Below the pieces are notes generated by a model. It did no database searches and had not been told where the DNA came from. It saw nothing but the letters and a program-made list of their open reading frames with translations. Below are positions 561-15,455 of a stretch of 59,708 bases of DNA, piece by piece. Position numbers and translations under genes: made by a program. This stretch comes from a virus. Its lineage: Duplodnaviria; Caudoviricetes. Where the stretch lies: the IMG/VR virus record IMGVR_UViG_3300014656_000031, positions 1 to 59,708 of that record; one strand, 5' to 3'. Each line of letters starts with the position of its first letter. The stretch's first letter is position 1.

Positions 561-883
561 CTAGATTCATAATTGGAAATGTGGTTAAGAACAAAAAACT
601 AAAAAACGATTTATACGTAATTAGTGAAGAAAATGATCTCCACTATACATTGATTTCATTTGATGCAAGTAATGTTACATGTAATGCAAACAATAATAAG
701 ACATTCCGAAAGGATATGTGTGGATGTTTTGTTCATCAAAGATGTCCAAATCCAGACTGTGAAGACTGTAAAGGAACAGGATATATTAAAGTTCAAAACA
801 ATTGGATTGGTGATTACAAGTATGTTGCTGATAATATCAAAGAATATATTATAGATGGGTTATCAAAACCTTTTGATTTGTAA
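557..883 (+). CDS. hypothetical protein with DnaJ-type Cys motif
   Basis: CEDCKGTG motif; ATGA overlap with upstream stop. Confidence 0.65.
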   Translation: MTRFIIGNVVKNKKLKNDLYVISEENDLHYTLISFDASNVTCNANNNKTFRKDMCGCFVHQRCPNPDCEDCKGTGYIKVQNNWIGDYKYVADNIKEYIIDGLSKPFDL

Positions 884-1125
884 TGAAATATCTTGTTCTT
901 AAATTAAATGATAGTATGGCGGTATACGAAGCTATGGAATACGGTAAACTAATACATCATAATGAAATCCACCCTGAACCAAACATTTGTTGGTGGGATC
1001 GATTGTATGGTACTCCAACTTCAATAATTATGTGGTACAATCATAACAAAAAATTCGGATATACGTGGGCATTATACGATTCTATAGAAGAGCTTGGAGA
1101 AAAAGAGTTTGTAAATCTATTATGA
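883..1125 (+). CDS. FVDLL-tail family small protein
   Basis: MKYLV...YDSIEELGEKEFVNLL*. Confidence 0.8.
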   Translation: MKYLVLKLNDSMAVYEAMEYGKLIHHNEIHPEPNICWWDRLYGTPTSIIMWYNHNKKFGYTWALYDSIEELGEKEFVNLL

Positions 1126-1355
1126 AATACGTATTTATTAAATGTCGTAATACTATGTTTATATTACAAAGTAAAACACCACAATCTAAACTAATATGTG
1201 TATATAATGGTTTAGATGTATGTAATAAAAAAACAAAATGGGTACACACTTTAAAACAACTGAAAACAAAAGAAACATGGTTTACATATCTAAAAGAATA
1301 TGATACTATTGAAAATTTAATCACTGAAGAAAATATATTCGCGGAGTTGCTATGA
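1122..1355 (+). CDS. FVDLL-tail family small protein
   Basis: ATGA-coupled start MKYVF...YDTIENLITEENIFAELL*. Confidence 0.8.
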   Translation: MKYVFIKCRNTMFILQSKTPQSKLICVYNGLDVCNKKTKWVHTLKQLKTKETWFTYLKEYDTIENLITEENIFAELL

Positions 1356-1654
1356 AATACTTATTTGTAAGAACACCAAATAATTGGAGGGTATATTCTT
1401 CTAAGATTATTATTTTTAAATCTTCATATCCACGTTCTCATTTGACAATAGTTTGGTCAGAAATAAAATCAGCTTATAGCTATAGACCAGGAACGAAACG
1501 GCATTACACATCTATTGTAAATTCTTCAGACGAATCAGTACAACAAATTGTTGACAATTGGAAATCAAATTTTAGTGACAATGGAATAATTGTTGTTGTT
1601 GAAGCGAAGTCTTTAGAAGAATTGTTAGAAAAATGTTTTGTGGATTTACTATGA
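1352..1654 (+). CDS. FVDLL-tail family small protein
   Basis: MKYLF...KSLEELLEKCFVDLL*. Confidence 0.8.
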   Translation: MKYLFVRTPNNWRVYSSKIIIFKSSYPRSHLTIVWSEIKSAYSYRPGTKRHYTSIVNSSDESVQQIVDNWKSNFSDNGIIVVVEAKSLEELLEKCFVDLL

Positions 1655-1908
1655 AATATATAGTTATAGAATTTGACAATAATCCAAAGCGTAGAAATTT
1701 TTATAAGTATGATAATGAGCAAAATGTTTGTATTATTTTTGAAATGACAGGAGTAAAAGATAGCCGAAAACGTATTGGATCTAAACATCACTGGGATTAT
1801 ACTCGACAAATCAAATACTGGTCAGACCCAGCAGGTCCATGGAAGATAATTGGTATTTATAACACATTTGAAGAATTTATAGAAACACATTTTGTAGATC
1901 TATTATAA
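1651..1908 (+). CDS. FVDLL-tail family small protein
   Basis: MKYIV...YNTFEEFIETHFVDLL*. Confidence 0.8.
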   Translation: MKYIVIEFDNNPKRRNFYKYDNEQNVCIIFEMTGVKDSRKRIGSKHHWDYTRQIKYWSDPAGPWKIIGIYNTFEEFIETHFVDLL

Positions 1909-1909
1909 T

Positions 1910-1985
1910 GCCGTGATAGCACAATTGGTACTGCACGTCTTTCGTAAAGACAAGATTGTCGATTCGAATTCGGCTCACGGCTCCA
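1910..1985 (+). tRNA. tRNA-Thr(CGT)
   Basis: acceptor GCCGTGA/TCACGGC, loop TT-CGT-AA, TTCGAAT T-loop, encoded CCA. Confidence 0.9.
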
Positions 1986-1987
1986 AT

Positions 1988-2061
1988 ACGGGATTAACAT
2001 AATGGAAGTGTGACAGGCCTACACCCTGTTAGTGGGGGTTCAATTCCCTCATCCCGTACCA
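1988..2061 (+). tRNA. tRNA-Val(TAC)
   Basis: acceptor ACGGGAT/ATCCCGT, stem ACAGG/CCTGT, loop CC-TAC-AC, CCA. Confidence 0.85.
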
Positions 2062-2075
2062 TTTTAGTTTTCAAT

Positions 2076-2150
2076 GCCTCTATAATGTAATGTATAGCAT
2101 AATACGCTTCGAACGTATTAGTGTGGGTTAGATTCCTACTAGAGGCACCA
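2076..2150 (+). tRNA. tRNA-Arg(TCG)
   Basis: acceptor GCCTCTA/TAGAGGC, loop CT-TCG-AA, CCA. Confidence 0.88.
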
Positions 2151-2156
2151 TTTTAT

Positions 2157-2229
2157 GTGTTATTGGTGTTCAACGGCAGCACGTCAGGTTTCCACCCTGA
2201 AGGTAGGGATTCAATTTCCCTATAACACT
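2157..2229 (+). tRNA. tRNA-Gly(TCC), no encoded CCA
   Basis: acceptor GTGTTAT/ATAACAC, stem TCAGG/CCTGA, loop TT-TCC-AC. Confidence 0.85.
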
Positions 2230-2238
2230 CTGTTTAAT

Positions 2239-2313
2239 GTGTCTATGGTGATAATAGTAACACGTCTGATTGCCTATCAGAAGATTCCGGGGCAGTTTCG
2301 GATAGACACTCCA
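2239..2313 (+). tRNA. tRNA-Gly(GCC)
   Basis: acceptor GTGTCTA/TAGACAC, loop TT-GCC-TA, atypical T-loop GGCAGTT, CCA. Confidence 0.82.
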
Positions 2314-2320
2314 TTCTATT

Positions 2321-2397
2321 GCCTCCATCGTCTAACGGCTTAGGATATCTGGTTCTCAACCAGAAGATTGCCAGTTCAAACCTGACTGGAGGCACCA
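2321..2397 (+). tRNA. tRNA-Glu(CTC)
   Basis: acceptor GCCTCCA/TGGAGGC, loop TT-CTC-AA, CCA. Confidence 0.88.
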
Positions 2398-2406
2398 TTT
2401 ATTTTA

Positions 2407-2435
2407 TTGCCTTATTAATTAGTTTCCTATATAAT
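2407..2435 (+). promoter_or_regulatory. sigma70-type early promoter
   Basis: TTGCCT-17 bp-TATAAT. Confidence 0.75.
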
Positions 2436-2462
2436 TTTAAAAAATGAAGGATAATAAAAATT

Positions 2463-2734
2463 ATGCCAAATTCTTTAAATAAACCAATTAATTTCAATGA
2501 TATATTTAGTGAAATGTTTGGTGGGGACAATTCTAAATCAAAAGACAATCCAAAGGAAACTATTATTATTGTAAAAGCAAAGAAATTGATGATTATCTTC
2601 GTTCTAAATATCGTGATAAATTAGTAGTTGGTGTATTAGAACCTGATGGTAGTATTCGTGTTATCAAAAACGATATTTCTGAAACTATGACAACTGATGA
2701 ATTTAAAGAAAAGTACTTTGTGGACCTATTATGA
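2463..2734 (+). pseudogene. FVDLL-tail family gene split by a -1 frameshift
   Basis: frame 0 stops at 2624 (53 aa); -1 frame open 2537-2734 reads EIDDYLRSKY...TTDEFKEKYFVDLL*; join near GTA AAA GCA AAG (2571-2582). Confidence 0.75.
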
Positions 2735-2985
2735 ATTATGCAGTTTTTATAAACAATCACAACATGTGTATTGAAATATGGGCTAAAGATGGTCCAAATG
2801 CATGTAAATTGATTGGTCATAATTATTCCTCAAAGATGTACTGGGACTCTAAAAAACAATCACTGGAAGATTGGGTTGATCATATTGAAAAAAATTTTCC
2901 AGGTCGGGATAAAAATGGATTTAAATGTACACGTTATAATACTTTAGAGGAAGTGATGGAACAACACTTTGTGGACCTGTTATAA
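2731..2985 (+). CDS. FVDLL-tail family small protein
   Basis: MNYAVF...YNTLEEVMEQHFVDLL*. Confidence 0.8.
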   Translation: MNYAVFINNHNMCIEIWAKDGPNACKLIGHNYSSKMYWDSKKQSLEDWVDHIEKNFPGRDKNGFKCTRYNTLEEVMEQHFVDLL

Positions 2986-3432
2986 GTTTCTTATAATCCA
3001 TATTTTATATGTTCTTCCAACTGGAATATCATGTAGTCTAGTGTGAATATAGGTTACCTCAACATTATGTTCCTTGAAAAAATTATAAATGTTCCAAGCT
3101 TGCTTCTTTAAGTGATCTTTACTGAATACTTCAATATCACCACTATTATCTCTTTTATCAATACCTAATCTTACAGCGCCATTCTTGAGTGCTAAAGTGT
3201 GTAGCATAAAATTTGGTGAATCTTTTTCACTTTCAGATAATCCGAACTGATCTAAATGATCTCTGATATATTGATCGTGCTTTGCATATTGAACAGGAAT
3301 AATTTGTCCAAACGGAAGCAACCAATAAACAATTTGAGGGGCTGCTCGATATATAGCCTGTTTATACAGATCATTGAATTTGTTAGATATTTCTTCAATA
3401 ATCAATTTGAATAATTTAGTAAAAGAATCCAT
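2980..3432 (-). CDS. hypothetical, putative internal head protein (W-x-x-P-x-G...H...G-x-x-R family)
   Basis: ATAAATA late motif just upstream; N-term MDSFTKLFKLIIEE; paralogous to 4421 and 16363 ORFs. Confidence 0.7.
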   Translation of the reverse strand: MDSFTKLFKLIIEEISNKFNDLYKQAIYRAAPQIVYWLLPFGQIIPVQYAKHDQYIRDHLDQFGLSESEKDSPNFMLHTLALKNGAVRLGIDKRDNSGDIEVFSKDHLKKQAWNIYNFFKEHNVEVTYIHTRLHDIPVGRTYKIWIIRNL

Positions 3433-3484
3433 ATTAATATTTATGCTTTTATGCCGCAGGTTTCGGTAAACACAGGAGTTTAAA

Positions 3485-3560
3485 CGCTAGGAAGTCAAAC
3501 GGCTGAGACTGCTCCCTCATAAGGAGAAAACAGCAAGTTCAATTCTTGCCCTAGCGACCA
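3485..3560 (+). tRNA. tRNA-Met(CAT), elongator or Ile2 type
   Basis: acceptor CGCTAGG/CCTAGCG fully paired, loop CT-CAT-AA, CCA. Confidence 0.85.
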
Positions 3561-3565
3561 ATTTT

Positions 3566-3640
3566 GTCTCTGTAGTGAAATGGATATCACAATAGGCTAC
3601 GAACCTGTAATTCCAGATTCGAATTCTGGCAGAGACGCCA
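3566..3640 (+). tRNA. tRNA-Arg(ACG)
   Basis: acceptor GTCTCTG/CAGAGAC, loop CT-ACG-AA, CCA. Confidence 0.9.
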
Positions 3641-3643
3641 TTT

Positions 3644-3698
3644 AGCCACTCCAACATCTTGACCCGTATGTTGGGGAAGAGGCTTAAATAAACGGGTC
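3644..3698 (+). ncRNA. candidate H-type pseudoknot RNA between tRNAs
   Basis: stem CTCCAACAT/ATGTTGGGG; loop GACCCGT (3661-3667) complementary to ACGGGTC (3692-3698). Confidence 0.55.
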
Positions 3699-3703
3699 CT
3701 TTT

Positions 3704-3778
3704 GCTCTTATGATGTAATGGATAGCATAAAAGTTTCCTGAACTTTTTGTACAGGTTCAAATCCTGTTTGGAGCACCA
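3704..3778 (+). tRNA. tRNA-Arg(CCT)
   Basis: stem AAAGT/ACTTT, loop TT-CCT-GA, GGTTCAAATCC T-arm, CCA. Confidence 0.85.
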
Positions 3779-3781
3779 ATC

Positions 3782-3855
3782 GCCCGTTTCGTTTAAAAGT
3801 AGGACGAGTCCTTGGTGAGGATTAAATTTGGGAGCGTTACCCAAAACGGGCTCCA
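3782..3855 (+). tRNA. tRNA-Thr(GGT)
   Basis: acceptor GCCCGTT/AACGGGC, loop TT-GGT-GA, atypical T-loop AGCGTTA, CCA. Confidence 0.8.
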
Positions 3856-3903
3856 TTTTAGATAAATATTTTAAAAGATATCATTTTAGATAAATATTTA
3901 AAA
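3855..3903 (+). repeat. tandem duplication of a late-promoter motif
   Basis: two near-identical copies of TTTTAGATAAATATTT(T)AAAA. Confidence 0.6.
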
Positions 3904-4094
3904 TGACATCTTTTAAAGAATATTTTGAAACACCAAACGATTTATGGATTGATTCAATACCAGAAGAACCCTATGATCCGTGTCCTTGTGGTTGTGGAAT
4001 GAAATGGAGATTCGTAGTTAAAGGTGGGGAAAAAGTTATTGCAGATCATGAAAAAAGATTTATTGAAAAAATGAAGGAACAATCACATGAATAA
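3903..4094 (+). CDS. small protein with SEC-C-like motif
   Basis: DPCPCGCGMKW; N-term MTSFKEYFE. Confidence 0.7.
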   Translation: MTSFKEYFETPNDLWIDSIPEEPYDPCPCGCGMKWRFVVKGGEKVIADHEKRFIEKMKEQSHE

Positions 4095-4434
4095 AGATGA
4101 CAAACTAATATTCGAATCATATTTTAATAAAAACAATGGTATTCCTGTGCACGTGGAATTAAACAAAATTTTACAAATTTTACAAAATTCAAAAACTGAA
4201 AGAGAAGCTAATGAATCAATGTTAACTGTGATACACGATGGCAAGCTTAGCGAAGATGCATTTTTAGAATATTTAGAAATAACACAAGTGACTGCTTATG
4301 ATGCCATGAAGGAGGCACTTACAGAAGAAGAAGAACCTAGTTTAGAAAATGAACCAGAGAAAATGTCTACTGTGGATAAAGAAATAGACCAATTATCTAT
4401 ACGTTCGTTTGAGAAAAATAATGCCAACATTTAA
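4087..4434 (+). CDS. acidic hypothetical, putative internal head protein
   Basis: N-term DDKLIFESY shared with 7528, 51917 and 52809 ORFs. Confidence 0.7.
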   Translation: MNKDDKLIFESYFNKNNGIPVHVELNKILQILQNSKTEREANESMLTVIHDGKLSEDAFLEYLEITQVTAYDAMKEALTEEEEPSLENEPEKMSTVDKEIDQLSIRSFEKNNANI

Positions 4435-4825
4435 GGACTATTTTAAAATGCATTTTGGCAAAATTGACAGAGCAGGATATTTTTGGATTATGCCAAACGG
4501 CGAAGTTATTGATGTGTCAGCTTCTACACATATGAATTATGCTAGGGCACACCCAGAAAAATTTAGAGTTCCAGCAAGCTATTTTGACGGAACAGAACCT
4601 CAACTTACAGCATTATTAAAATCTGGAGCTATTCGAGTAGGTACTCTTGATTATAAACTGTCTGCAGATGTTTCTTATTATACTTTCACTGATTTAAAAA
4701 GACAAGCTAGAAAAATATACGAACTTTTTTCCCATACTAAATTTGAAAAAATTCATTTACATAGATTTGAAGAACCTGTCAAAAATCTTGAAATTTCACT
4801 TGACAGGATTAAAGAATTATATTAA
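4421..4825 (+). CDS. hypothetical, W-x-x-P-x-G...H...G-x-x-R family
   Basis: MPTFKDYFK start; FWIMPNGEVI..H..LLKSGAIRVG. Confidence 0.7.
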   Translation: MPTFKDYFKMHFGKIDRAGYFWIMPNGEVIDVSASTHMNYARAHPEKFRVPASYFDGTEPQLTALLKSGAIRVGTLDYKLSADVSYYTFTDLKRQARKIYELFSHTKFEKIHLHRFEEPVKNLEISLDRIKELY

Positions 4826-4838
4826 TATATATAAAGAT

Positions 4839-4913
4839 AGCGGGGTACACTGGAGAGTCCAGGGATGGTCTCATAAGCCATCGACGCTGATTGCAAAACA
4901 GCTCCCGCCACCA
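4839..4913 (+). tRNA. atypical initiator-like tRNA-Met(CAT)
   Basis: A1:C72 mismatch, GCGGGG/TCCCGC acceptor, loop CT-CAT-AA, degenerate T-arm, CCA. Confidence 0.75.
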
Positions 4914-4939
4914 ATTTCAAAAGGATATTAAACAACTAT

Positions 4940-5017
4940 TGGCGCATAGAGTAATGGTAGCTCCCCAGACTTTGAATCTGGATGGTTGTGTTGGTTCAAC
5001 TCCAACTGCGCCAACCA
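4940..5017 (+). tRNA. tRNA-Gln(TTG)
   Basis: acceptor TGGCGCA/TGCGCCA, loop CT-TTG-AA, CCA. Confidence 0.88.
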
Positions 5018-5035
5018 TTTCCTTTTAATTTTAAT

Positions 5036-5124
5036 GCCAACGTCGGTTAGTGGCTATACCAGCAGATTTGTAATCTGCCATGTCGAAAGACATACCGGGA
5101 GTTCAAGTCTCTCCGTTGGCTCCA
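5036..5124 (+). tRNA. tRNA-Thr(TGT) with long variable arm
   Basis: acceptor GCCAACG/CGTTGGC + T73, loop TT-TGT-AA, V-arm ATGTC-GAAA-GACAT, CCA. Confidence 0.8.
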
Positions 5125-5136
5125 TTTAGTTTCTTC

Positions 5137-5165
5137 TTGACTTTCTCAAAGGTTTCATATATAAT
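5137..5165 (+). promoter_or_regulatory. sigma70-type early promoter
   Basis: TTGACT-17 bp-TATAAT. Confidence 0.8.
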
Positions 5166-5209
5166 TTAATTATAATAATTAAAAGCCATTACATGTTTGT
5201 AGGTTTACT

Positions 5210-5569
5210 ATGAAAATCTGTGTTTTATCACAAGAGCAACTTAAAACTTTTATTGAGATAAGAGATGATCATAAATATGGAAAATCATTTGAATATACAC
5301 ATTTTGCAGGACCTTTTCCACCAATAAACAACACTCCTTCTTGTTCTACTACACCAGAAAATATAAAAATGATGGAATTATATTATAAAGTTAAAAATGC
5401 AGATTTGGTTGTTGTTGATTGGGATGGAAAGAATTTTAGAGTTTTTAAAGATTGGGGTATATGTACAGTAGTAGAAGATACACGAGGACGGGTTCCGAAT
5501 GTGTGGAACCATGGAGATTTGATTAAAAAAGAAGAACTAGTAGAACAATATTTTGAAGAATTTTTATGA
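5210..5569 (+). CDS. FVDLL-tail family protein (variant)
   Basis: ends KKEELVEQYFEEFL*. Confidence 0.75.
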   Translation: MKICVLSQEQLKTFIEIRDDHKYGKSFEYTHFAGPFPPINNTPSCSTTPENIKMMELYYKVKNADLVVVDWDGKNFRVFKDWGICTVVEDTRGRVPNVWNHGDLIKKEELVEQYFEEFL

Positions 5570-6102
5570 AAAAAACTAAAGATATAACTAAGTACAACAT
5601 TAAATGGCAAATTTTACGGGCTAAAATTAAAGGCCCTGGTTATTCACTAAATGAGAAACTAACTGCTGTAGAAAAATATTTCAGAGAAGAACAGACCATA
5701 GATGCTTATGAAAGAGTATTAAACTTCTTAGAAGGTCTACAAAAAGGATATATAGGCAAAAATCCAAAGGCAGCAGAAATCGTAGAAAGCGAAATCAGTG
5801 AATGGCGACATTTTGATTCCACTAGAATGAAAAAAGAATCATCTATAATTCCTACCACAGATGAAATATTAGAATATTCATTTGGTGAAAGATTTCTTCT
5901 TTGGAAAGACTTATTTAAACGCAATCAAAAATGGTTAGAAAAAGGATATAACCAAAAAGAATTAAACAATTTCATGGATTTGTTATATAAAGCCTTTCAA
6001 GATAACAAAGAAGACGTGGGAGAAAATTATTCCTACAAAAAATTACAACAACTTCGAAAAAGTGCAGAATCTATAGAAAATACACATAAATTTTTCTTTT
6101 AA
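5566..6102 (+). CDS. hypothetical protein
   Basis: 178-aa ORF, ATGA-coupled. Confidence 0.75.
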   Translation: MKKTKDITKYNIKWQILRAKIKGPGYSLNEKLTAVEKYFREEQTIDAYERVLNFLEGLQKGYIGKNPKAAEIVESEISEWRHFDSTRMKKESSIIPTTDEILEYSFGERFLLWKDLFKRNQKWLEKGYNQKELNNFMDLLYKAFQDNKEDVGENYSYKKLQQLRKSAESIENTHKFFF

Positions 6103-6109
6103 TTAATCA

Positions 6110-6138
6110 TTGCCTTATAATAAATTTTATGGTAATAT
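6110..6138 (+). promoter_or_regulatory. sigma70-type promoter for the ncRNA
   Basis: TTGCCT-17 bp-TAATAT with TG extension. Confidence 0.6.
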
Positions 6139-6174
6139 ATTAAAAGATAAGTAAACGTTCTTTAAAAATAAAAT

Positions 6175-6460
6175 AACAGTGACTGAATAAGAGGTAGCCA
6201 GCCTCTAAGGTGTTAGCGACGATGAAGAATCTAGCTAGCTAGTAGGCCTGTGAAGCGTAAACCTGAAAAAGCGAGAGTTGGTCAACTCTTAGCTTCGTAA
6301 GAACGGGACAAATCGTAATATAAATCATTATGATGGCTGTATCCTGTTGAAGGTAAACAATCCTTCCATTCGTTAAGCGTTTGTCTGATCAACAACGTGA
6401 ATGTGGGTGAATGAACGTGTACAGAACTGAATTTATGGGTAGTCATGAATCCCATCTATT
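6175..6460 (+). ncRNA. large structured ncRNA candidate (ROOL/GOLLD-like context, class unassigned)
   Basis: ORF-free, GC-richer than flanks, at least six hairpins, long-range GTGACT/AGTCAT pairing, own promoter and terminator, within a tRNA cluster. Confidence 0.7.
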
Positions 6461-6468
6461 ATTTTTTT

Positions 6469-6502
6469 ACCCAGGATAATTAAACTTTATCCTGGGTTTT
6501 TT
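6469..6502 (+). terminator. rho-independent terminator
   Basis: ACCCAGGATAA/TTATCCTGGGT stem followed by T-run. Confidence 0.85.
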
Positions 6503-6509
6503 GTTTAAT

Positions 6510-6593
6510 GCCCTCGTAGCCGACCCGAGCTTCTAACTCGCGGAACCGTAATTGGAGCTGAAATTGCAGGTTCGAATCCTGCTGAGGGCGCCA
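6510..6593 (+). tRNA. rearranged tRNA-Arg(TCT)-like gene lacking a normal D-arm
   Basis: acceptor GCCCTCG/TGAGGGC+GCCA, perfect T-arm GCAGG-TTCGAAT-CCTGC, loop CT-TCT-AA, only 8 nt between acceptor and anticodon stem. Confidence 0.7.
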
Positions 6594-6602
6594 TTGTTTT
6601 CC

Positions 6603-6630
6603 TTGTCTTCTCCCTTGGTTCATATATAAT
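6603..6630 (+). promoter_or_regulatory. sigma70-type early promoter
   Basis: TTGTCT-16 bp-TATAAT, ATG at 6637. Confidence 0.6.
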
Positions 6631-6636: not shown

Positions 6637-7281
6637 ATGAAAAACTTAAAATTCTATGTACAGCAACATTCGACAAGAATATCTCCTGGAAATTATCAAC
6701 TAGGTACAAAAATTCAAATACCCTATAGAGACTTTTGTGGGTATATTAAAACCTCTGCAAAATTAATGGGGTCTGATTGGATAAAACAAATTACGCAAAC
6801 TGAATTGCAAATACAACAAGTTATTAAGCGATGGTGTAATGCTTATGTTTCTACAGAAATTAAAGGGCAGCATATTCCTGTGATTGATTGGGATGGGGCA
6901 TTACACGATAAAAACCTCCCAGTATTAAAACATTTAGATGAAAATAATATTGGATATGTAATTTTTCACAGTACAACTGATTTAAGATACTGGATATTTA
7001 TTGACCAATTAGGAACTCATACACAATGCATTAAACTTATGGGCGATTGCCGAAATAAATACTCTGCTGGAGATCCATCCTATATCCATTATCAATCTCA
7101 AACTAAAAATATCGTAGTTAGAGCCTACCCCAAATTTATGGATATCCCTTCTCTTTTCATGTCCAGCGATCCCACAAAATACACCAAAAATTTCAAATTA
7201 TGGATAGACAGTTTTAATCAGTATTGGAAAGAACCACATATTCAAGAAGTAGTAGATCATTTCTTTGTGGAAAGCTTATGA
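6637..7281 (+). CDS. hypothetical, possible primase-polymerase-like fold, with FVDLL-type tail
   Basis: PVIDWD (DxD) and YVIFHST motifs; ends QEVVDHFFVESL*. Confidence 0.6.
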   Translation: MKNLKFYVQQHSTRISPGNYQLGTKIQIPYRDFCGYIKTSAKLMGSDWIKQITQTELQIQQVIKRWCNAYVSTEIKGQHIPVIDWDGALHDKNLPVLKHLDENNIGYVIFHSTTDLRYWIFIDQLGTHTQCIKLMGDCRNKYSAGDPSYIHYQSQTKNIVVRAYPKFMDIPSLFMSSDPTKYTKNFKLWIDSFNQYWKEPHIQEVVDHFFVESL

Positions 7282-7505
7282 AATTTCTCTTTATGCAATT
7301 TAAACATGCGCCAGAGATTGTTTATATAGCTAAAGCAGATACTCTAGACAGTCCTGCTACATATATACATTGTCCTGCCGGTATGGATAATTATCGTAAT
7401 ATAACAATTAAAAGTGAAATGCGCATAGACTCTTCATCATGGATCTATAAACTATATGACTCTTTAGAAGAATTAATGGAAGCTCATCTAGTCGATCTTT
7501 TATAA
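7278..7505 (+). CDS. FVDLL-tail family small protein
   Basis: MKFLF...YDSLEELMEAHLVDLL*. Confidence 0.8.
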   Translation: MKFLFMQFKHAPEIVYIAKADTLDSPATYIHCPAGMDNYRNITIKSEMRIDSSSWIYKLYDSLEELMEAHLVDLL

Positions 7506-7527
7506 CATAAAATGATAAATATTTAAT

Positions 7528-9111
7528 ATGAATACAGAAACTAAGCTGATTTATGAAGCGTATCAAACTATTTATGAATCTTGGTGGGACGATGTAGAAC
7601 AAGAAGGTCCTGAAAAAGATGTAAAAGCAGATGCAGAAAAAATAATTGCTTCAGAAAACGAAGAAGAAATATCAGCTATTGCACAAAAAGCTGCACATGA
7701 AATTCCTCCAGAACAGACAGAAGAAACTGCGGATAAAGAATGGGAAATCTCTGCCAGGTTTATGCCGTACTTGCAAGAAAAAATAAACAAGCTAAACAGA
7801 AAATCAGCAAAATTAGGCACTCCTCCAATTACTCTTACTAAAACCGGTGAGGAAATTCGTAAAATTACAAGTGAAGTAAATGGTGAAGAATTACTAGTAC
7901 AAATCATTAAAATTAAACTGCAAGGATCTGCTCCAGTATTGGACGGTTGGCAATTTGTGGCAACTATTGAACATATACCAGGCGGCAATATGATTTATAA
8001 AGTTCCTGGTTTAGATCTAAAAACTCCACTTACTACAATTTTTAAAAATCAACCACCTACTTGTGATTGGTGTAAAATTAATAGAAGCCGTTTAGAAACC
8101 TTTCTAATTCGCAAATTGGTTAATGGTGTTCCTGTAGAAGGAAAATGTGTAGGGCGAACATGTCTAAAGGATTTCTTGGGTGGCAATGATCCACAAAAGT
8201 ATTTAGCCTATGCAAAAAGTTTAACAGACATTATTGGAATGCTAGCTGAATTTGAAGCGGCTGGAGCAGAAAGCCCTCATCCCCGAGCTGCACATGCAGA
8301 TCAATATGTTGAGGCTTTTGGATTTCTATGTAGAGTAGCAACAAACATTCGTAATTTTGGTTGGATAAGTGCAGCTAAGGCTCGTGAGCAAGGAAGATCT
8401 TCTACAACTTCTGATGCCCTGATAGATATTAGCAATGCACAAAAAGGCAATCAACCTAAAAAATCAATTGAACAAGAAGACAAAGAACTAGCCCAAAAAA
8501 CTATAGATTGGGCTCAGAATGGTCTTCCTAAAAAAATTGAAGAAATTACAAATAAAATTGCTGCAGGAACTGCTTCTTCCTTCGAACAACAAAGCGTAGA
8601 TTATTTAAACAATTTACACACAGCATTACAATCAAATTATTTAACTTGGAAGCAAGCACGAATTGCAGGGTCTGCTATTATAGCATATAAAAAAGAAACA
8701 GAATGGAAAGATAAACAAAAAGAACAAGCATCTAAATCCAATGAATGGGTGGGACAATTAGGTGGTAAAATTAGTAAATTACACGTAACCCTAAAAGGGA
8801 AAAACACTTTTCAAACTGATTATGGTATGTCTACTTTGGTGAGATTTGAAGATGACGTAGGAAATAAGCTAGCCTGGTTTGCTACAAATACAGATTCCTT
8901 AGGAGATTGGGATATCGGTACCTCCATGAATATTGATGGTACCGTTAAAGCCCATCAATTCTATCCACGAGGATCACAGAATAAACAAACTCTTCTAACA
9001 CGTGTTAAAAATTCTGATTTCATTAAGCCTCGAAAGGCACGACAACCAAAATTTGTTGTTCCTCCTGTTCCACCGAAAACAACAGGGCTAGATGCTTCTC
9101 CAGGATGGTAA
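7528..9111 (+). CDS. conserved phage protein, Zn-binding centre and probable C-terminal OB-fold
   Basis: CDWC...CVGRTCLKDFLG; C-term WVG...RFEDDVGNKLAWF...GTVKAH...QTLLTRVK; N-term KLIYEAY. Confidence 0.7.
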   Translation: MNTETKLIYEAYQTIYESWWDDVEQEGPEKDVKADAEKIIASENEEEISAIAQKAAHEIPPEQTEETADKEWEISARFMPYLQEKINKLNRKSAKLGTPPITLTKTGEEIRKITSEVNGEELLVQIIKIKLQGSAPVLDGWQFVATIEHIPGGNMIYKVPGLDLKTPLTTIFKNQPPTCDWCKINRSRLETFLIRKLVNGVPVEGKCVGRTCLKDFLGGNDPQKYLAYAKSLTDIIGMLAEFEAAGAESPHPRAAHADQYVEAFGFLCRVATNIRNFGWISAAKAREQGRSSTTSDALIDISNAQKGNQPKKSIEQEDKELAQKTIDWAQNGLPKKIEEITNKIAAGTASSFEQQSVDYLNNLHTALQSNYLTWKQARIAGSAIIAYKKETEWKDKQKEQASKSNEWVGQLGGKISKLHVTLKGKNTFQTDYGMSTLVRFEDDVGNKLAWFATNTDSLGDWDIGTSMNIDGTVKAHQFYPRGSQNKQTLLTRVKNSDFIKPRKARQPKFVVPPVPPKTTGLDASPGW

Positions 9112-9580: not shown

Positions 9581-9651
9581 ATAATTTTCTTGATTTTTTC
9601 TATATTTATAATATAATTAACTTAGTGGGGATGGCATACAACAGCAACTTC

Positions 9652-10587
9652 ATGAAATTTCTAACATATGCATTGTTAATATTATTAACTGTTCAGTCAC
9701 CTGCAAATATATTAACTCTTGAATTAGAAAACGATATATTCTTCGATAGTGATAAATTTTATACGCATGGAACTAAGATTTGTTATTACTTCACCTATCT
9801 GCAAACTTTTGATAAATACTTTGAATTTCTTTTCAAAAAAGATAGAGCCCATAACATTGGATTAACTATTGGGCAGAATATGTATACTCCTTCAGATATC
9901 AGCATATCTACTCCTATTACGGACGACAGACCTTATGCTGGCTGGCTCTATGGTGGAATTATATTTAAATCTATTGGATCTAATGATACTAGTTTTATTG
10001 AAATAGATGTTGGTACAACTGGCCCAGATTCCTATGCAGAAGAAGTTCAAAAACAAGTACATGAGTGGACAGGCAGTACAACTCCAATGGGTTGGAGTAA
10101 TCAGATTAAAAATGTAGTTGGCATAAATGTAATCTTTAAAGAAAAATGGAAACTGTGGGATGCATATTATAAGGACCTTGGTGTACAATTTAATCCATTT
10201 GTAAATGCTTCTCTAGGAAATATTTGTACATATTTTGGAGGAGGTGTAGAACTTCGAACAGGATATAAATTACCTCCAGACCTGTTTATAGTTTCTCCTA
10301 TAGAACCCACTGTTATTGAAATTAATCCTAAAGAATGGTTCTTCTTTTTATTTGCATCAATTGGAGGCAAATATGTTGCTCGAAATATTTTATTAGATGC
10401 AGAATTATGTCCTATTCCATATTATTTAGAAAAAGAAGATTGGATAGGCGAATTCAAATATGGAGCCGCAACAGGATTAAAATACATTCGAATTGAACTA
10501 GCTAACATTATTCGTACTAAAGAATTCACCATTCAAAATCAGGATTATATAGAATATACTTCCTTGGCGGCATCAATTGTTTTTTAG
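9652..10587 (+). CDS. lpxR: LpxR-family (DUF2219) lipid A deacylase, outer-membrane beta-barrel
   Basis: signal peptide, ENDIFFDSDKFYTHG, GQNMYTP, DRPYAGWLY, C-terminal Phe. Confidence 0.8.
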   Translation: MKFLTYALLILLTVQSPANILTLELENDIFFDSDKFYTHGTKICYYFTYLQTFDKYFEFLFKKDRAHNIGLTIGQNMYTPSDISISTPITDDRPYAGWLYGGIIFKSIGSNDTSFIEIDVGTTGPDSYAEEVQKQVHEWTGSTTPMGWSNQIKNVVGINVIFKEKWKLWDAYYKDLGVQFNPFVNASLGNICTYFGGGVELRTGYKLPPDLFIVSPIEPTVIEINPKEWFFFLFASIGGKYVARNILLDAELCPIPYYLEKEDWIGEFKYGAATGLKYIRIELANIIRTKEFTIQNQDYIEYTSLAASIVF

Positions 10588-10595
10588 GAGAAACT

Positions 10596-10784
10596 ATGGC
10601 AAACTATATTGAAATCAAAGCAGAATATTGGTCTGATCGAACTAAAAATAAAGATAAGCCTATTGCATTAACATTTAAGGAAGGTGGAAGAAATTCTTTT
10701 AGTGATGTCAAATGGTTATCTGTTAACGAATGTAAAAAACTAAAAGAATCCTTGCAGAAAATATTGGATGATATAAAATTATAA
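10596..10784 (+). CDS. hypothetical protein
   Basis: AGGAG RBS, 62 aa. Confidence 0.7.
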   Translation: MANYIEIKAEYWSDRTKNKDKPIALTFKEGGRNSFSDVKWLSVNECKKLKESLQKILDDIKL

Positions 10785-10849
10785 TATAAAAGAAATGAAA
10801 TTTCGATTACAAAATTATCCGGAACTATTAAAAAAAGAAAGACATTAAA

Positions 10850-11056
10850 ATGAAACTTGTATGTCCAAATAATCCTAAACATAAAAGGTTTAGTACTTAT
10901 GCTGCTATATCACGAGAATGGATAGTAGATGAAGATGGGAAATTTATTAGAGAAGGAAAAAATAGCGATATAATAAACTATCCGGATGAACACGATTGTT
11001 TTTGGTGTGTAGAATGTGCTACAGAAGCAGATAAAATAAAGGCAGATGAAAAATGA
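10850..11056 (+). CDS. small zinc-ribbon protein
   Basis: CP...H and WCVECA motifs. Confidence 0.65.
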   Translation: MKLVCPNNPKHKRFSTYAAISREWIVDEDGKFIREGKNSDIINYPDEHDCFWCVECATEADKIKADEK

Positions 11057-11598
11057 TTACAACAAAACAAAATGGTAATAAGTTAACAGTTACAATTGAA
11101 CATCAATGTGATTCTTGTGAAGGAACAGGACTATATCAAGGTATGGCTGAAAGAAACGGAGCTGGTGTAGTCTGTTCTACTTGTAAGGGAACAGGTAAAT
11201 TTGTTTCTGTTGAAACTTTTACGAAATTTGAAGGTCGTAAAAACAAAAAAGGTGTTGAACGAGTTTATCAAACAGCAGGGGGCTATGGAATCACATCTAA
11301 AGATTTTACAGATAAAAATGGCAAACTTTTTAAATTTTCAGAAGCAGGATGCTCCTATAAAGATTGGAAGAATGATGTAATTCCAAAACCTATAGAAGAT
11401 CTGCATTGTCCGTATATGCATAGTAATCAAAACATGCAAAACTCTAAACACAAAGCCTATAAGATGTATAAAACTGTATGTAGAAATGGGTTACATTGGG
11501 GCTTGATTACCGAATGTAAGAATTTTAAATGTAAAGAGAAGTGTTGGAAGAAATACTATGAATTAGTTGGTGATAATTATAATGAAATCAAAGCCTAA
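11053..11598 (+). CDS. DnaJ-type zinc-finger protein
   Basis: CDSCEGTG and CSTCKGTG repeats. Confidence 0.75.
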   Translation: MITTKQNGNKLTVTIEHQCDSCEGTGLYQGMAERNGAGVVCSTCKGTGKFVSVETFTKFEGRKNKKGVERVYQTAGGYGITSKDFTDKNGKLFKFSEAGCSYKDWKNDVIPKPIEDLHCPYMHSNQNMQNSKHKAYKMYKTVCRNGLHWGLITECKNFKCKEKCWKKYYELVGDNYNEIKA

Positions 11599-11731
11599 TA
11601 AGTGTTACATTAAAAAATGTAAATGGGCTCCTTCTATAGTTTATTTAAATAGAGAACTATGTGACTATCATTGGGAAATGTTATGTAAATTAGATACTGC
11701 TGACATGAAAAGAAAATTGAACTTAAAATGA
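11582..11731 (+). CDS. 49-aa Cys/His protein (below ORF-track cutoff)
   Basis: MKSKPNKCYIKKC...LCDYHW...; fills gap, ATGA-coupled to HNH gene. Confidence 0.6.
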   Translation: MKSKPNKCYIKKCKWAPSIVYLNRELCDYHWEMLCKLDTADMKRKLNLK

Positions 11732-12330
11732 ATGTAAAGAAGCCAGATGTACTTGTACTTAATCGTGTTTTTGTACCTATACACATTGTAGACCATCAAA
11801 CTGCAATGACTCTAATTTATACTGAAAAATGCCGACCTTTAGATAGAGATTATTTGGCATATACATTTAATGATTGGTTAAATTTTTCTTCTCAAGAAAC
11901 TAATAATTATCCAAAATTACACACTATAAATTATCCTATTGCTATACCAGAAATTATAGTATCTACTACCTTTGATAAACTCCCACAGAGGCAAGTAAAA
12001 TATTCTAGAACCAATGTAATGGCCCGAGACAAATATCGTTGCGGTTATTGTGGTAAACAGTTTAATAGAAAGGATCTTACTATTGATCATATTCATCCAA
12101 GATGCAAAGGTGGTAAGACTACATGGGATAATGTAATCTCTTGTTGTTTCCCTTGCAATCAAAAGAAAGACAACAAAACTATGGCAGAAGCTGGAATGAA
12201 GCTAAGATTTTTACCTAAAGCACCAAAATGGATGTCTCCATTAACTCATATAAGTATGAAGGAACATCCTTGTAAAAGTTGGTCTCATTTTATGTATAAG
12301 GTCTCTACGGAAATAGAGAATGAAGACTAA
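11728..12330 (+). CDS. HNH endonuclease (McrA-like)
   Basis: RDKYRCGYCG...LTIDHIHPRCKGGKTTWDNVISCCFPCNQKK. Confidence 0.9.
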   Translation: MNVKKPDVLVLNRVFVPIHIVDHQTAMTLIYTEKCRPLDRDYLAYTFNDWLNFSSQETNNYPKLHTINYPIAIPEIIVSTTFDKLPQRQVKYSRTNVMARDKYRCGYCGKQFNRKDLTIDHIHPRCKGGKTTWDNVISCCFPCNQKKDNKTMAEAGMKLRFLPKAPKWMSPLTHISMKEHPCKSWSHFMYKVSTEIENED

Positions 12331-12585
12331 AGAATATTGGTTAGCAGAACGCAACTTGTCACGCGGATCATTAACACCAATACTTGGTGATTTTTGGTAT
12401 CTTTTAGTTAATAAACGTAATGGTGTATGGTATACTTTAATAAACACAAATGACTATACGCTCGATTCTATTAAAAATATTTTGGTAAATCAAATATTAC
12501 AGATATTGAAGGCCCATGGTGTTTCACTGATAGTTATAAAATAAGGCAATTACAAGACGGTGAAGAGTTTATTTACATGTTATGA
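12320..12585 (+). pseudogene. FIYML-tail paralog split by a -1 frameshift
   Basis: frame 0 stops at 12544; -1 frame open from 12475 reads KYFGKSN...QDGEEFIYML* and ends in ATGA overlap with its paralog; A5 run at 12473-12477. Confidence 0.75.
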
Positions 12586-12836
12586 AAAATAAAGAATACT
12601 GGTTATGTGGAAGTACTGATGAAAAGGATTTTTGGTTTCTTGTAACAGACCTTGAGCCTTGTGTTGATAATAAATATCCTAAAGGATTTCTTGAAGGAAA
12701 ATTGATTAATGGGGGTCCACATGAAATGGCGAGAGCATGGCGCCCCAATAATTCCAACTTTATATGGAACCCTAAGGCCCCAGGTTATTATCTAAAAAAG
12801 GTTCCTCCAGATGAAGTTTTTATTTATATGTTGTAG
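12582..12836 (+). CDS. small protein, FIYML-tail variant
   Basis: MKNKEYWL..DFWFLV..PDEVFIYML*; paralog of 12320 gene. Confidence 0.75.
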   Translation: MKNKEYWLCGSTDEKDFWFLVTDLEPCVDNKYPKGFLEGKLINGGPHEMARAWRPNNSNFIWNPKAPGYYLKKVPPDEVFIYML

Positions 12837-13272
12837 TTTATTGATGTTATGTGGATGTGTTAATAGTGCAAAACGCAACTATCTTGGTACATACTCTATA
12901 GCAAATGATACTATTAATTTGTATCTCGTTCATCAACAAGAACTTAGCAAAACTAATATAGCCTGCGCAATCCACACAATCAGGGATAGTTTATTACTAT
13001 GTGAGAGTAAAGAGCGATTTTTTATGCATAAGGCATACATCGACACATTAAAATCATTAGAACTCAATTCTAATGAGAAATACATAGTGAATTACTTCTA
13101 TACTCAATACCTTAATTTTATATATTTTGATATAAAAGTCCCTATGCAACATATATCTCAGGCACTATTTAATGGAACTGAATTGGTGCTAGATTGGTTC
13201 GATGACACTTATCGGTTTTTTTCATATAAAGAAACTTTTAATATGAATACGGGCCTATCTGAGTTACGTTAA
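12811..13272 (+). CDS. putative lipoprotein
   Basis: MKFLFICCSLLMLCGC lipobox-like signal. Confidence 0.6.
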   Translation: MKFLFICCSLLMLCGCVNSAKRNYLGTYSIANDTINLYLVHQQELSKTNIACAIHTIRDSLLLCESKERFFMHKAYIDTLKSLELNSNEKYIVNYFYTQYLNFIYFDIKVPMQHISQALFNGTELVLDWFDDTYRFFSYKETFNMNTGLSELR

Positions 13273-13816
13273 ACCATAAAATATAATGAAATCCGTTTTT
13301 ATCTTCTACGTTCAATATTTTATATTTTTCTCTTGTTTTTCTATCTGTCCACAGAGCTTCATTTTGCACAAAATAATCTCCATCTAACTTTCCATATAGA
13401 GACTCTAAAATATGAGCTATTTCGTCCTGTCTTCTTAGAATTACATAAGCATTATGGTGATCATATCCTTTTGATAATTGTATAGGCTTTGGTTTAGAAT
13501 CTTTTTCTTTTTGGCGAGCTCTTATAGCTTCTTTATGTTTCCACGGCTTTTTTCGTGCATTTTGTATTTTATCTAATACCGTCTCTTCATCTTTGGCTAA
13601 TATAGAAGGTTCTAATACAGAAATATCAGCTTCTTCACTATAAACTTCTTCGCTTGGAGGTGAATCTGGTATATCAGGAGCTAACACAACATCAGCCAAC
13701 TGTCTAACATTTTTAGCTATCCTACGATTTTCTAAATATCTGTTTTTATTCTTTCTAGAATATCGAAGTTTAGACTTCTTCTTTTTAGGTGCAGGATCTA
13801 TATTTTCTGTTGTCAT
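13238..13816 (-). CDS. basic hypothetical protein
   Basis: likely start MTTENIDPAPKKKK behind palindromic late motif. Confidence 0.7.
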   Translation of the reverse strand: MTTENIDPAPKKKKSKLRYSRKNKNRYLENRRIAKNVRQLADVVLAPDIPDSPPSEEVYSEEADISVLEPSILAKDEETVLDKIQNARKKPWKHKEAIRARQKEKDSKPKPIQLSKGYDHHNAYVILRRQDEIAHILESLYGKLDGDYFVQNEALWTDRKTREKYKILNVEDKNGFHYILWFNVTQIGPYSY

Positions 13817-13818
13817 AT

Positions 13819-13832
13819 CATAAATATTTATG
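13819..13832. promoter_or_regulatory. palindromic T4-like late promoter between divergent genes
   Basis: CATAAATATTTATG perfect palindrome; motif recurs at 17161, 27716, 51875, 55370 and others. Confidence 0.65.
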
Positions 13833-13850
13833 TTACTATAGAATATTGCA

Positions 13851-14158
13851 ATGAACAAATTTAAACACTTTTTTAAAGAAGCGTCTGTCCAATATGAAGA
13901 TTGGACTAGTGCTATAGAAGGCAATTCTATGCTTAGGACTGGGCGGGATTTGCTTATAGAATTTGATAGAATCTGGCCTGGTAAAGAATCTCTGATTGTT
14001 GGTGGTACAATTAGAGACTTGTTATTGGTAAAATTCTTAGTGACACAGAACAATGGATTGTAGATAATTCTAAATTTAATGCCACGGAAGAAGAAATTAA
14101 AAAGTTTGCCAATATGAAATATAAAGAATCTTTAAAAAAACCTGGCCAAATAAATTGA
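13851..14158 (+). pseudogene. CCA-adding enzyme / poly(A) polymerase family gene with large internal deletion
   Basis: N-terminal LIVGGTIRDLLL motif joined out of frame to IGKILSDTEQWIVDN...EEEIKKF C-terminal-like segment. Confidence 0.7.
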
Positions 14159-14177
14159 TTTCATATATAATTATAAT

Positions 14178-14408
14178 ATGAAATTTAAAAAATATGTTTT
14201 AGTCAGTTTAGATAATGGCACCACAGGATTTATTGTTCATGATATAGAACCAATAAACATAAATATAGATGGTATAGAGTTACAAATATATCAACCATTT
14301 TTAGGATATACAGAATCAAAGCTTACATGTTTTATAAGAGACAATATTATAGATTCAGCAAATACAGTTCAAGAACTAGTAGAACGATATTTTGAAATGT
14401 TTTTATGA
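14178..14408 (+). CDS. FVDLL-tail family protein (variant)
   Basis: ends NTVQELVERYFEMFL*; TATAAT at 14166-14171. Confidence 0.75.
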   Translation: MKFKKYVLVSLDNGTTGFIVHDIEPININIDGIELQIYQPFLGYTESKLTCFIRDNIIDSANTVQELVERYFEMFL

Positions 14409-14658
14409 TTAAATTTAATATACATGATATCGTATGTCTTAATAATTATAGTATGTACCATGAAGATGAATTTAAAACTACATTTTTAAGATTGTTGAGA
14501 TTTCAGAATATGAGTATAAATGTTTTATAGATGTTGTTCCTTTAAACAAAAATCCATTACATATAGATAAATATTGTTTTTATGATTATGAATTAAGGAA
14601 AATTAGTGAGAAAGAATTGGACATTTATGGTTCTGAATTGTTTGTGGATTTACTTTAA
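14405..14658 (+). pseudogene. FVDLL-tail family gene split by a -1 frameshift
   Basis: frame 0 stops at 14530; -1 frame open from 14476 reads NYIFKIVEI...YGSELFVDLL*; A4 (14474-14477) and T5 (14483-14487) runs. Confidence 0.75.
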
Positions 14659-14918
14659 TGTATCAATTATTCAAAACCTTTGATAAATTTGAACACAGAT
14701 GTACATATAGCATCTGCAATGATTATTTTATAAAATTTGAATGGGCTGAAAAACAAGGAAAAGTAGTATCTGCTTGTGAAATACCATTTGAGTGTCGAAT
14801 ACACTTAAATGAAAGTCCCTATGAAACAACTAATCTAATGTGTGAATTATCCTCTACAGAAGAAGTGTGGTATTATATAGGGGAAAATTTTCCCGAGCTG
14901 TTTACGTTTTTACTGTAG
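14658..14918 (+). CDS. FVDLL-tail family protein (variant)
   Basis: ends STEEVWYYIGENFPELFTFLL*. Confidence 0.7.
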   Translation: MYQLFKTFDKFEHRCTYSICNDYFIKFEWAEKQGKVVSACEIPFECRIHLNESPYETTNLMCELSSTEEVWYYIGENFPELFTFLL

Positions 14919-15195
14919 TTTCAGAAACATTAAACCCGTTACCTACGAAAAAGTTTTTAATAATCCCTGTAACTATAGACTGATCTGTTTCTGGCACATT
15001 TTTAAATTCAATGTAGATATCTTCTTCGCCTAAAAATGCGTAGTTAGTAAAATAATCATTCTTAGTTAAAACATAATTACTGTTTAAAAATGTTAAAAAA
15101 TGTTTAAATAAATCATACTCTAATATTTTTGAATAAGTTAATTCAGGTGCTTCAAAACCAATACTATCCTGTTCATATGATAAAACTATTTTCAT
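14902..15195 (-). CDS. hypothetical protein
   Basis: 97-aa ORF, ATGA-coupled. Confidence 0.7.
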   Translation of the reverse strand: MKIVLSYEQDSIGFEAPELTYSKILEYDLFKHFLTFLNSNYVLTKNDYFTNYAFLGEEDIYIEFKNVPETDQSIVTGIIKNFFVGNGFNVSETTVKT

Positions 15196-15455
15196 AATAA
15201 TATTTCAAAACTTTCATTTTTGAGTTGTTGTTCTGTTAACCGTTGCACAATATTATCTTCTTTAATAAACATTTCCTGATCATATTTTTTATAATTAGTT
15301 TGAGGAGAGGTCATTGATCTACTCCAATAAGGCCCCACCAATACTAATTTTTTATTCTTTACTAAAGATTCTTCCGCCCCTGAATATGATTCTTTTACCT
15401 TCCCAATAATTTGTTGATTATTAATTTCTGCTATAATATAATTATCTTGTTGCAT
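15192..15455 (-). CDS. small protein, possible FVDLL-tail variant
   Basis: likely start MQQDNY; ends EQQLKNESFEILL*. Confidence 0.65.
   Translation of the reverse strand: MQQDNYIIAEINNQQIIGKVKESYSGAEESLVKNKKLVLVGPYWSRSMTSPQTNYKKYDQEMFIKEDNIVQRLTEQQLKNESFEILL

Follow-up and report, generated by a model that had tools for sequence, protein, structure and literature searches.

The first 15.5 kb of the IMG/VR virus record IMGVR_UViG_3300014656_000031 encode a set of small proteins that share a 12-residue, acidic and hydrophobic C-terminal ending with the consensus EE-h-x-E-x-x-FVDLL-COOH (h, hydrophobic; x, any residue). The record, which was analysed over its whole length of 59.7 kb and is called the window here, is a fragment of an uncultured T4-like myovirus. 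Six of the proteins, named like all others after the position at which their gene starts (883, 1122, 1352, 1651, 2731 and 7278), are full-length paralogs and constitute a new, orphan and lineage-restricted family of small alpha/beta proteins, and at least four further genes have a significantly similar ending on bodies that are no longer, or never were, alignable. The reading that we put forward, and which in our judgement stands an even chance of being right, is that of a birth-and-death paralog family in which the constant ends clasp one scaffold and the unalignable carriers have diverged beyond recognition.

The shared C-terminal ending

Expressed as the pattern E[ELFV]x(1-3)Exx[FL][VAE][DENM][LFS]L, the full motif was found at eight distinct ends of open reading frames (ORFs), each directly before the stop codon, and at no internal position in any of the six frames. 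It did not occur in 200 mononucleotide shuffles. We can confirm the claim of a preliminary description of this DNA that the motif is always at the extreme C-terminus, and the outcome named there as a refutation, a motif no commoner at C-termini than in shuffled controls, was not observed. The shorter pattern F[VA][DNE]LL occurs ten times in the six frames, seven times before a stop, with a mean of 0.035 terminal occurrences in the shuffles. In all 23 carriers found here and in the related sequences described below (L001 and G001) the ending is exactly C-terminal, with no ragged extension, and nine proteins (five in the window, two in L001 and two in G001) end precisely in FVDLL-COOH.

A position-specific scoring matrix (PSSM), trained on the eight core endings against a background of 19,376 internal 12-mers, was used to score 345 termini. 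Beyond the training set it detected the endings of 5210, 14178 and of two genes interrupted by a frame change (2537fs and 14476fs, the ending frames of 2463 and 14405), all with p<=1.5e-4, whereas 6637 is marginal over 345 termini and the endings of 14658, 15192 and the pair 12320/12582 (p=0.0025-0.04) are at the level expected by chance for that number (Table 1). A looser pattern, F-x-x-[LFM]-L-COOH, which was defined only after the gene list had been seen, terminates 10 of the 122 ORFs that are 60 amino acids (aa) or longer, all of them below position 15,500, where 0.054 would be expected; five of the listed genes have nothing but F-x-x-h-L-COOH in common. The preliminary description had counted about 15 proteins with the tail. 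All 15 C-termini that it quoted are present in the sequence, but three of them (2463, 12320 and 14405) are out of frame with the quoted start, and ten members are well supported, whereas 12320, 12582, 14658 and 15192 score no better than chance in the PSSM.

Could the list be an artefact, short hydrophobic ends being common in an AT-rich genome and the examples having been picked by eye? The four chance-level endings among the 15 and the post hoc nature of the looser pattern would fit such an explanation, but the full motif is absent from all shuffles, a reversed control pattern gave two matches over 14 records against seven real matches that all lie in two records, and G001 proved to contain a new FVDLL-COOH gene that was detected independently. 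We regard the probability of this explanation as negligible, and for the ten well-supported members it is refuted. The ending could also be conserved as DNA, if the junction of ending, overlapping stop/start and MKY were kept for translational coupling or as a recombination joint. Indeed, in 9 of 14 cases the ending and the following start codon overlap (ATGA or TAATG), and among the only four segments that can be aligned between the window and L001 is a stretch of 52 nt across an ending and the start after it (79% identity). However, the mean pairwise differences within the ending amount to 0.33, 0.16 and 0.50 at codon positions 1, 2 and 3, respectively, i.e., the third position is the most variable, and synonymous codons are mixed for Val (GTA, GTG, GTC), Asp (GAT, GAC) and Leu (CTA, TTA, CTG, CTT). 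Because of this synonymous variation a DNA-level cause is largely refuted and appears very improbable. In addition, 1651, 2731 and 7278 have an intact ending without being coupled to a downstream gene, no consistent Shine-Dalgarno-like, purine-rich word was seen in the last codons, and the longest exact word common to neighbouring endings measures about 11 nt. Selection on the ending therefore acts at the level of the protein and not of the DNA, as had been proposed in the preliminary description.

Core paralogs, other carriers and broken copies

Colinear, full-length BLAST alignments connect 1651 with 2731 (33% identity over 84 aa), 2731 with 883 (29% over 91 aa) and 1651 with 7278 (24% over 85 aa). 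The relationship does not depend on the ending: in leave-one-out profiles from which the last 16 residues had been removed, the left-out body was ranked among 186 non-member ORF bodies and came first in seven of eight trials (E from 1e-9 to 0.02), the miss being 883 at rank 4. The bodies had been described as unrelated, which does not hold for these six core genes (24-33% identity) nor for 12320 and 12582, which are homologs of each other. The bodies of four further carriers could not be aligned.

The core architecture consists of an N-terminal strand (MK[YF] followed by hydrophobic residues), an indel-rich and beta-rich middle, a last strand and a terminal helix. The conserved block extends upstream of the ending as originally quoted and comprises a hydrophobic strand, an h-Y-[DN]-[ST] cap and a helix of 12-13 residues, with no gap between last strand and ending in eight of the nine aligned core sequences. 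Hardly any variation is seen in the first strand and the terminal helix, whereas the middles are only 20-33% identical, with many insertions and deletions; the ending is much better conserved than the bodies. For 1651, AlphaFold2 (AF2) returned from a nine-row alignment a model with a predicted local distance difference test score (pLDDT) of 75 and a predicted template modelling score (pTM) of 0.65, with strands at residues 2-8, 11-20 and 28-32, a low-confidence loop, a helix at 50-58, a strand at 64-70, and the ending as a helix at 73-84 that follows this strand directly and without a linker (pLDDT of the block 89-90). In this one modelled core member the ending is thus a confidently predicted helix joined to the last strand, the kind of result that the preliminary description had named as refuting a modular tail. 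Since the alignment of 7278 has a gap at the position of the helix 50-58 of 1651, the terminal helix is possibly the only one in that protein. A two-copy complex prediction of 1651 scored 0.02 (mark, 0.42), which counts as evidence in neither direction.

No known family was recognized. Searches of Pfam and PHROGs with ten members gave best E-values above 0.01, seven further proteins had no Pfam match above the cut-off, PADLOC recognized none of 11 proteins, and the best sequence match in PDB had E=0.66. With the 1651 model, Foldseek found no significant match either (best E 0.7 in PDB and 0.1 in BFVD). A profile search of 1.84 billion representatives returned the six window proteins, one full-length relative of 83 aa (E=8e-8) and two long proteins, neither of which was accepted: in P0010, a protein of the Calx-beta type, the repeats (D-E-L-D-E-T-F-F-V-N-L) mimic the ending, and P0011 reached an hhalign probability of only 6%. 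Word-indexed searches with 2731, 5210 and a 97-aa member from G001 retrieved only the queries themselves, scans of viral contigs for loci related to a 527-aa neighbour and to P0009 yielded no relative, and a limited literature search found nothing in print on such a family.

By core profile and BLAST, the bodies of 2463/2537, 5210, 14178 and 14405/14476 could be tied neither to the core nor to each other. It is possible that 14178 is a distant core relative, although the core hidden Markov model gives it only 3.4 bits, and its AF2 model from an 11-row alignment (pLDDT 51, pTM 0.32) is too poor for use. Sequence search with 5210 found no homolog beyond itself, and its ESM Atlas model is of low confidence (pLDDT 0.53); a V-[IV]-D-W-D-G stretch is common to 5210 and 6637. 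The body of 6637 has no match in Pfam or PHROGs, nor by tblastn against isolated phages, and its predicted resemblance to an AEP/RepB-type primase fold (ESM Atlas features 0.96; neighbours with PF24387 and PF16793) may serve as a lead only. A Pro or Gly residue precedes the last eight residues in 14405/14476 (as Gly-Ser), in 14658, in a 70-aa G001 protein (G1_56234) and in L001_169. The homologous pair 12320 and 12582 has a further homolog in L001 at 5569/5586.

Table 1. Ending-bearing genes of the window and features of their surroundings (fs, ending read after a frame change).
Position	Strand	Feature	Support or remark
883-1125	+	Core member, 80 aa, ending YDSIEELGEKEFVNLL	Stop overlaps next start (TTATGA)
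1122-1355	+	Core member, 77 aa, ending YDTIENLITEENIFAELL with a 2-residue insertion within the ending	Left-out body E=2.7e-7, rank 1
1352-1654	+	Core member, 100 aa, ending KSLEELLEKCFVDLL	Left-out body rank 1
1651-1908	+	Core member, 85 aa, ending YNTFEEFIETHFVDLL, stop TAA	Structure modelled; followed by tRNA-Thr at 1910
2731-2985	+	Core member, 84 aa, ending YNTLEEVMEQHFVDLL, stop TAA	Left-out body rank 1; followed by a convergent gene
7278-7505	+	Core member, 75 aa (shortest), ending YDSLEELMEAHLVDLL, stop TAA	Left-out body E=2.8e-6, rank 1; next gene 7528
2463-2734	+	Ending-bearing gene with -1 frame change; ATG frame 2463-2624, ending frame 2537-2734 (2537fs), ending DEFKEKYFVDLL	PSSM 21.6; body not alignable to core
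5210-5569	+	119-aa protein, second-type ending EELVEQYFEEFL	PSSM 18.5; no core-profile match in body
14178-14408	+	76-aa protein, second-type ending NTVQELVERYFEMFL, N-terminus MKFKKYVLV	PSSM 9.4, p=1e-4
14405-14658	+	Ending-bearing gene with -1 frame change; ATG frame 14405-14530, ending frame 14476-14658 (14476fs), end YGSELFVDLL	PSSM 8.7, p=1.5e-4; DNA pattern match
6637-7281	+	214-aa protein, ending QEVVDHFFVESL	Marginal match; PSSM 5.9, p=5e-4
12320-12585	+	F-I-Y-M-L family (MK-x-KEYWL ... F-I/A-Y-M-L), copy broken by -1 frame change; EEFIYML in frame 12475-12585	PSSM p=0.038, outside main motif
12582-12836	+	F-I-Y-M-L family, intact copy, 84 aa, end PPDEVFIYML	Last 26 nt overlap next gene's start
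14658-14918	+	86-aa protein, ending STEEVWYYIGENFPELFTFLL	Loose match only (P-E-L-F-x-x-L-L); PSSM p=0.0025
15192-15482	-	96-aa protein, end NESFEILL	Loose match only; PSSM p=0.0039
1910-5124	+	Ten tRNA genes	Interleaved with the ending family, not members of it
49547-51898		gp6- and gp25-type baseplate proteins	
53324-54256	-	gp44-type clamp loader	
58569-59705		gp23-type capsid protein	

Three of the 12 small genes are frameshifted. To be read through, 2463-2734, 12320-12585 and 14405-14658 each need a -1 change of frame, for which the simplest explanation is one base missing from a run of A or T. The sequence of the broken genes is identical, without gaps, in Logan contigs of the runs X1 and X2 (both of which are possibly sources of this DNA), so that the breaks are probably not errors of a single assembly. 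Counted over A/T runs, 3 of 71 are broken in small genes and 0 of 580 in large ORFs (Fisher p about 0.001), a rough comparison that is biased because the large ORFs were chosen for being intact. On reading the three genes we saw no canonical slippery X-XXY-YYZ heptamer, and programmed frameshifting seems unlikely as judged from their sequence. They are probably decaying copies, as would be expected if selection were relaxed on individual genes of a redundant set. In L001, a gene with the second type of ending (7435-7660) stops as ...QELVERHF after a run of five T, and since the next frame reads E-K-F-L-stop, the relative also has a homopolymer-broken copy; its F-A-Y-M-L family gene at 5569/5586 is likewise split across two frames.

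The phage and its relatives

With a G+C content of about 31%, the window represents 25% of a genome according to CheckV. Its capsid protein shares at most 34% identity with that of any isolated phage and 62-81% with the best 80 of 598 IMG/VR stretches, which places the phage in a widespread uncultured clade. Besides the small genes on the plus strand, the first 15.5 kb hold ten tRNA genes and accessory genes such as one for an HNH endonuclease, and with this typical content they form an early-type variable region. Most of the ending-bearing genes had been thought to lie behind sigma70-type promoters, and good matches do exist upstream of 2463, 5210, 6637 and 14178, but the scan total does not exceed that of shuffles (101 against 86.4 +/- 9.5). 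We also noticed a second paralog family, formed by 2980-3432 (minus strand), 4409-4825 (plus) and, linked more weakly, 16363-17160 (minus); 2980 and 4409 are 29% identical over 119 aa (E=1e-15), a relative exists in G001 near 6830-7140, and there is no Pfam match to the three genes.

The 83-aa relative found among the representatives is encoded on L001, a tRNA-rich metagenome contig that holds three core members in tandem. Family genes overlap in tandem in both sequences (window 883-1908; L001 10001-10643), and full-length homology extends to six window and three L001 genes and not to 2463/2537, 5210, 14178, 14405/14476 and two G001 genes. Besides, a truncated gene with the second-type ending and an F-I-Y-M-L family gene are present in L001. 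The contig represents a distinct relative of the window phage; only four short segments align at the DNA level. One of these is the ending/next-start junction mentioned above, and another comprises 54 nt (window 1-54, L001 16839-16892, 89% identity) with a perfect TTGACA-17-TATAAT promoter (12/12) at window positions 13-41. The genes flanking this segment differ between window and L001, as would be seen at a joint of promoter-cassette shuffling. None of the anticodons of the ten window tRNA genes recurs among the eleven tRNA genes of L001 (7891-16824); a number of tRNA genes above 20, distributed over several clusters, is probable for phages of this lineage.

Across IMG/VR, two degenerate DNA patterns for the main ending led to a single other record, G001 (110.9 kb), the window's own record possibly having been excluded; with the same proviso, a DNA pattern for the second-type ending had no match. 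G001 encodes a 97-aa FVDLL-COOH protein to which the core profile gives 21 bits for the ending and 1.5 bits for the body, as well as the 70-aa protein G1_56234, which ends in ...TTRPDLFVDLL and has no BLAST similarity to any member. Window and G001 do not overlap, are complementary in gene content and have a tetranucleotide correlation of 0.976, and it is possible that both derive from one phage, or from two very closely related ones, with a genome of about 210-230 kb, like the complete relatives. An ORF of 1,328 aa in G001 (49089-53075, minus strand; open frame of 1,333 aa) includes the family-B DNA polymerase, in which a segment with a LIDGDGN-type (LAGLIDADG-like) stretch is inserted; this segment is probably an intein or a homing endonuclease.

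Twelve large relatives were picked from the capsid search, three of which are complete genomes of 211-230 kb. None of the 12 matched the family profile, and none contained the FVDLL-stop DNA pattern, which was found five times in the window and twice in G001; the reversed control gave its two matches over all 14 records, i.e., these 12, the window and G001. The absence of both profile and pattern from the 12 relatives indicates that family and ending are confined to a narrow sublineage.

Possible roles of the constant ending

If the birth-and-death reading is correct, the products would be accessory early proteins built on one small scaffold, and probably serve host takeover or counter-defence. 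The constant first strand and terminal helix would close the fold and display a conserved acidic face, the middle would be the diversifying, target-specific part, and copies would be gained in tandem and lost by frameshift. Several points weigh against this reading. Judged from the sequences, the ending seems much more conserved than a structural helix would require, and by our own reasoning on a helical wheel E-11, E-10, E-7, D-2 and V-3/L0 would not all fall on one buried face. A strictly C-terminal position in 23 of 23 cases, without any ragged extension, is also to be accounted for, as are the bodies of at least four window carriers and two G001 carriers, for which none of the searches found a link to the core. 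In 14405/14476, 14658, G1_56234 and L001_169, where Pro or Gly stands ahead of the final eight residues, the ending resembles an added peptide more than an unbroken helix. Finally, the terminal helix comes from a predicted model, from which its burial cannot be read, and the function is one that we infer wholly, with no family, structure or defence-related match.

These same points lend themselves to other explanations. AAA+ proteases read short C-terminal tags, and the ending might be a degron through which a protease of the host or the phage would remove early proteins at a set time, so that their functions cease as infection proceeds; its exactly terminal position, its non-polar last residues and the restriction of all ten F-x-x-h-L ends to the early-type region below position 15,500 would agree with this. 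Yet we found no protease or adaptor gene linked to the family, and the core ending is predicted as a helix packed after a strand, which makes a degron improbable. Alternatively, the last 8-12 residues with their free ...F-V-D-L-L carboxylate might be a portable handle that plugs varied bodies, which supply the specificity, into one hub, with the phage sliding clamp, the host clamp, a chaperone or a protease adaptor as candidates. The invariable C-terminal position, the exact FVDLL-COOH on nine proteins of three sequences, its occurrence on mutually unalignable bodies including the G001 genes, and the Pro/Gly before the final octapeptide of four carriers all speak for such a handle, as does a likeness to the equally acidic and hydrophobic, interchangeable ends of T4 gp43, gp55 and gp33, as described in PMC2988020. 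Against it, no linker separates the core ending from the last strand, and the model shows this ending as a helix with high confidence; the clamp epitope of T4 gp55, by contrast, sits on a divergent flexible linker (PMC2988020). A linker of this kind is not seen in the core, and only the four non-core carriers have Pro/Gly before the last eight residues. Furthermore, the ending is absent from the 12 T4-like relatives, which we presume, no clamp search having been made, to encode clamps; this would be unexpected for a universal clamp handle. Overall we consider the handle possible though doubtful. Its stronger form, in which the last eight residues or so are a portable docking peptide that was kept on, or moved between, at least five bodies and ties early effectors to one hub, we hold to be rather unlikely.

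A shared hub (clamp, protease or phage scaffold) had been suggested in the preliminary description, but no hub gene could be identified, and searches for a clamp gene (PF09116, PF02916) found none in the window and none in G001. As genes for gp43, gp55 and gp33 are missing from the window, the ends of polymerase and gp55 were compared in G001. There, gp43 ends in ...CDLFEFFKV and the gp55-like protein in ...DDRGLINEAN, unlike the ...NFVDLL and ...LFVDLL of the two carriers; they are not highly similar to the ending and have only an h-h-acid-h-h word in common with it. In the T4 record the corresponding ends are ...SLDFLFG (gp43) and ...SLDFLYEAND (gp55). The gp44-type clamp loader of the window ends in ...CCLLELVSVL; only two other ORFs outside the family have an h-h-acid-h-h word among their nine C-terminal residues, and its presence in the clamp loader is probably due to chance. 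Used as a query, the clamp loader had no match; that is, none was found in G001. Clamp binding in bacteria follows the consensus QL[SD]LF, from which the ending F-V-D-L-L departs in that it does not begin with Gln.

Small early genes to which no function can be assigned are numerous in large phages and often form rapidly changing sets of paralogs; among these the present family shows an unusually clear split into nearly invariant ends and a hypervariable middle. If the constant end is a clasp and nothing else, the family would be one more orphan expansion, of use mainly as a compact scaffold with a variable middle that indicates the sites of phage-host conflict. If it should turn out to be a docking handle, it would point to a hub to which a single phage lineage connects many of its effectors; this would be the C-terminal counterpart to the "toolbelt" of the T4 clamp, in the service of host takeover, and a 16-residue peptide would be a ready bait for it.

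Among known systems, the clamp-binding ends of T4 gp43, gp55 and gp33 come closest, which are highly similar and interchangeable (PMC2988020). As described there, they resemble the ending in being short, acidic and hydrophobic, and C-terminal on otherwise unrelated carriers of a T4-type phage. They differ in that the ending of our family is a predicted helix of 12-16 residues joined to the last strand without a linker, that its carriers are small and mostly paralogous, and that it is absent from the polymerase and gp55-like ends of G001. By analogy, a short terminal peptide on otherwise dissimilar phage proteins also recalls the capsid-targeting sequence of T4, which sends internal proteins to one structure; that sequence, however, is N-terminal, cleaved and found on late or packaged proteins, whereas the ending described here is C-terminal and belongs to genes of an early-type region. 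The genomic setting is best compared with the variable (hyperplastic) regions of T4-like phages, in which small lineage-specific early ORFan genes are located between conserved blocks and differ in content among relatives (PMC2839356, PMC4122927). The cluster of small genes and the absence of the family from the 12 relatives correspond to this picture, and the 54-nt promoter segment with its differing flanks may do so as well. The promoter-stem-loop (PeSL) cassettes of such regions are described in these sources as intergenic DNA, whereas the conserved element of the present family is a coding peptide under selection at the protein level.

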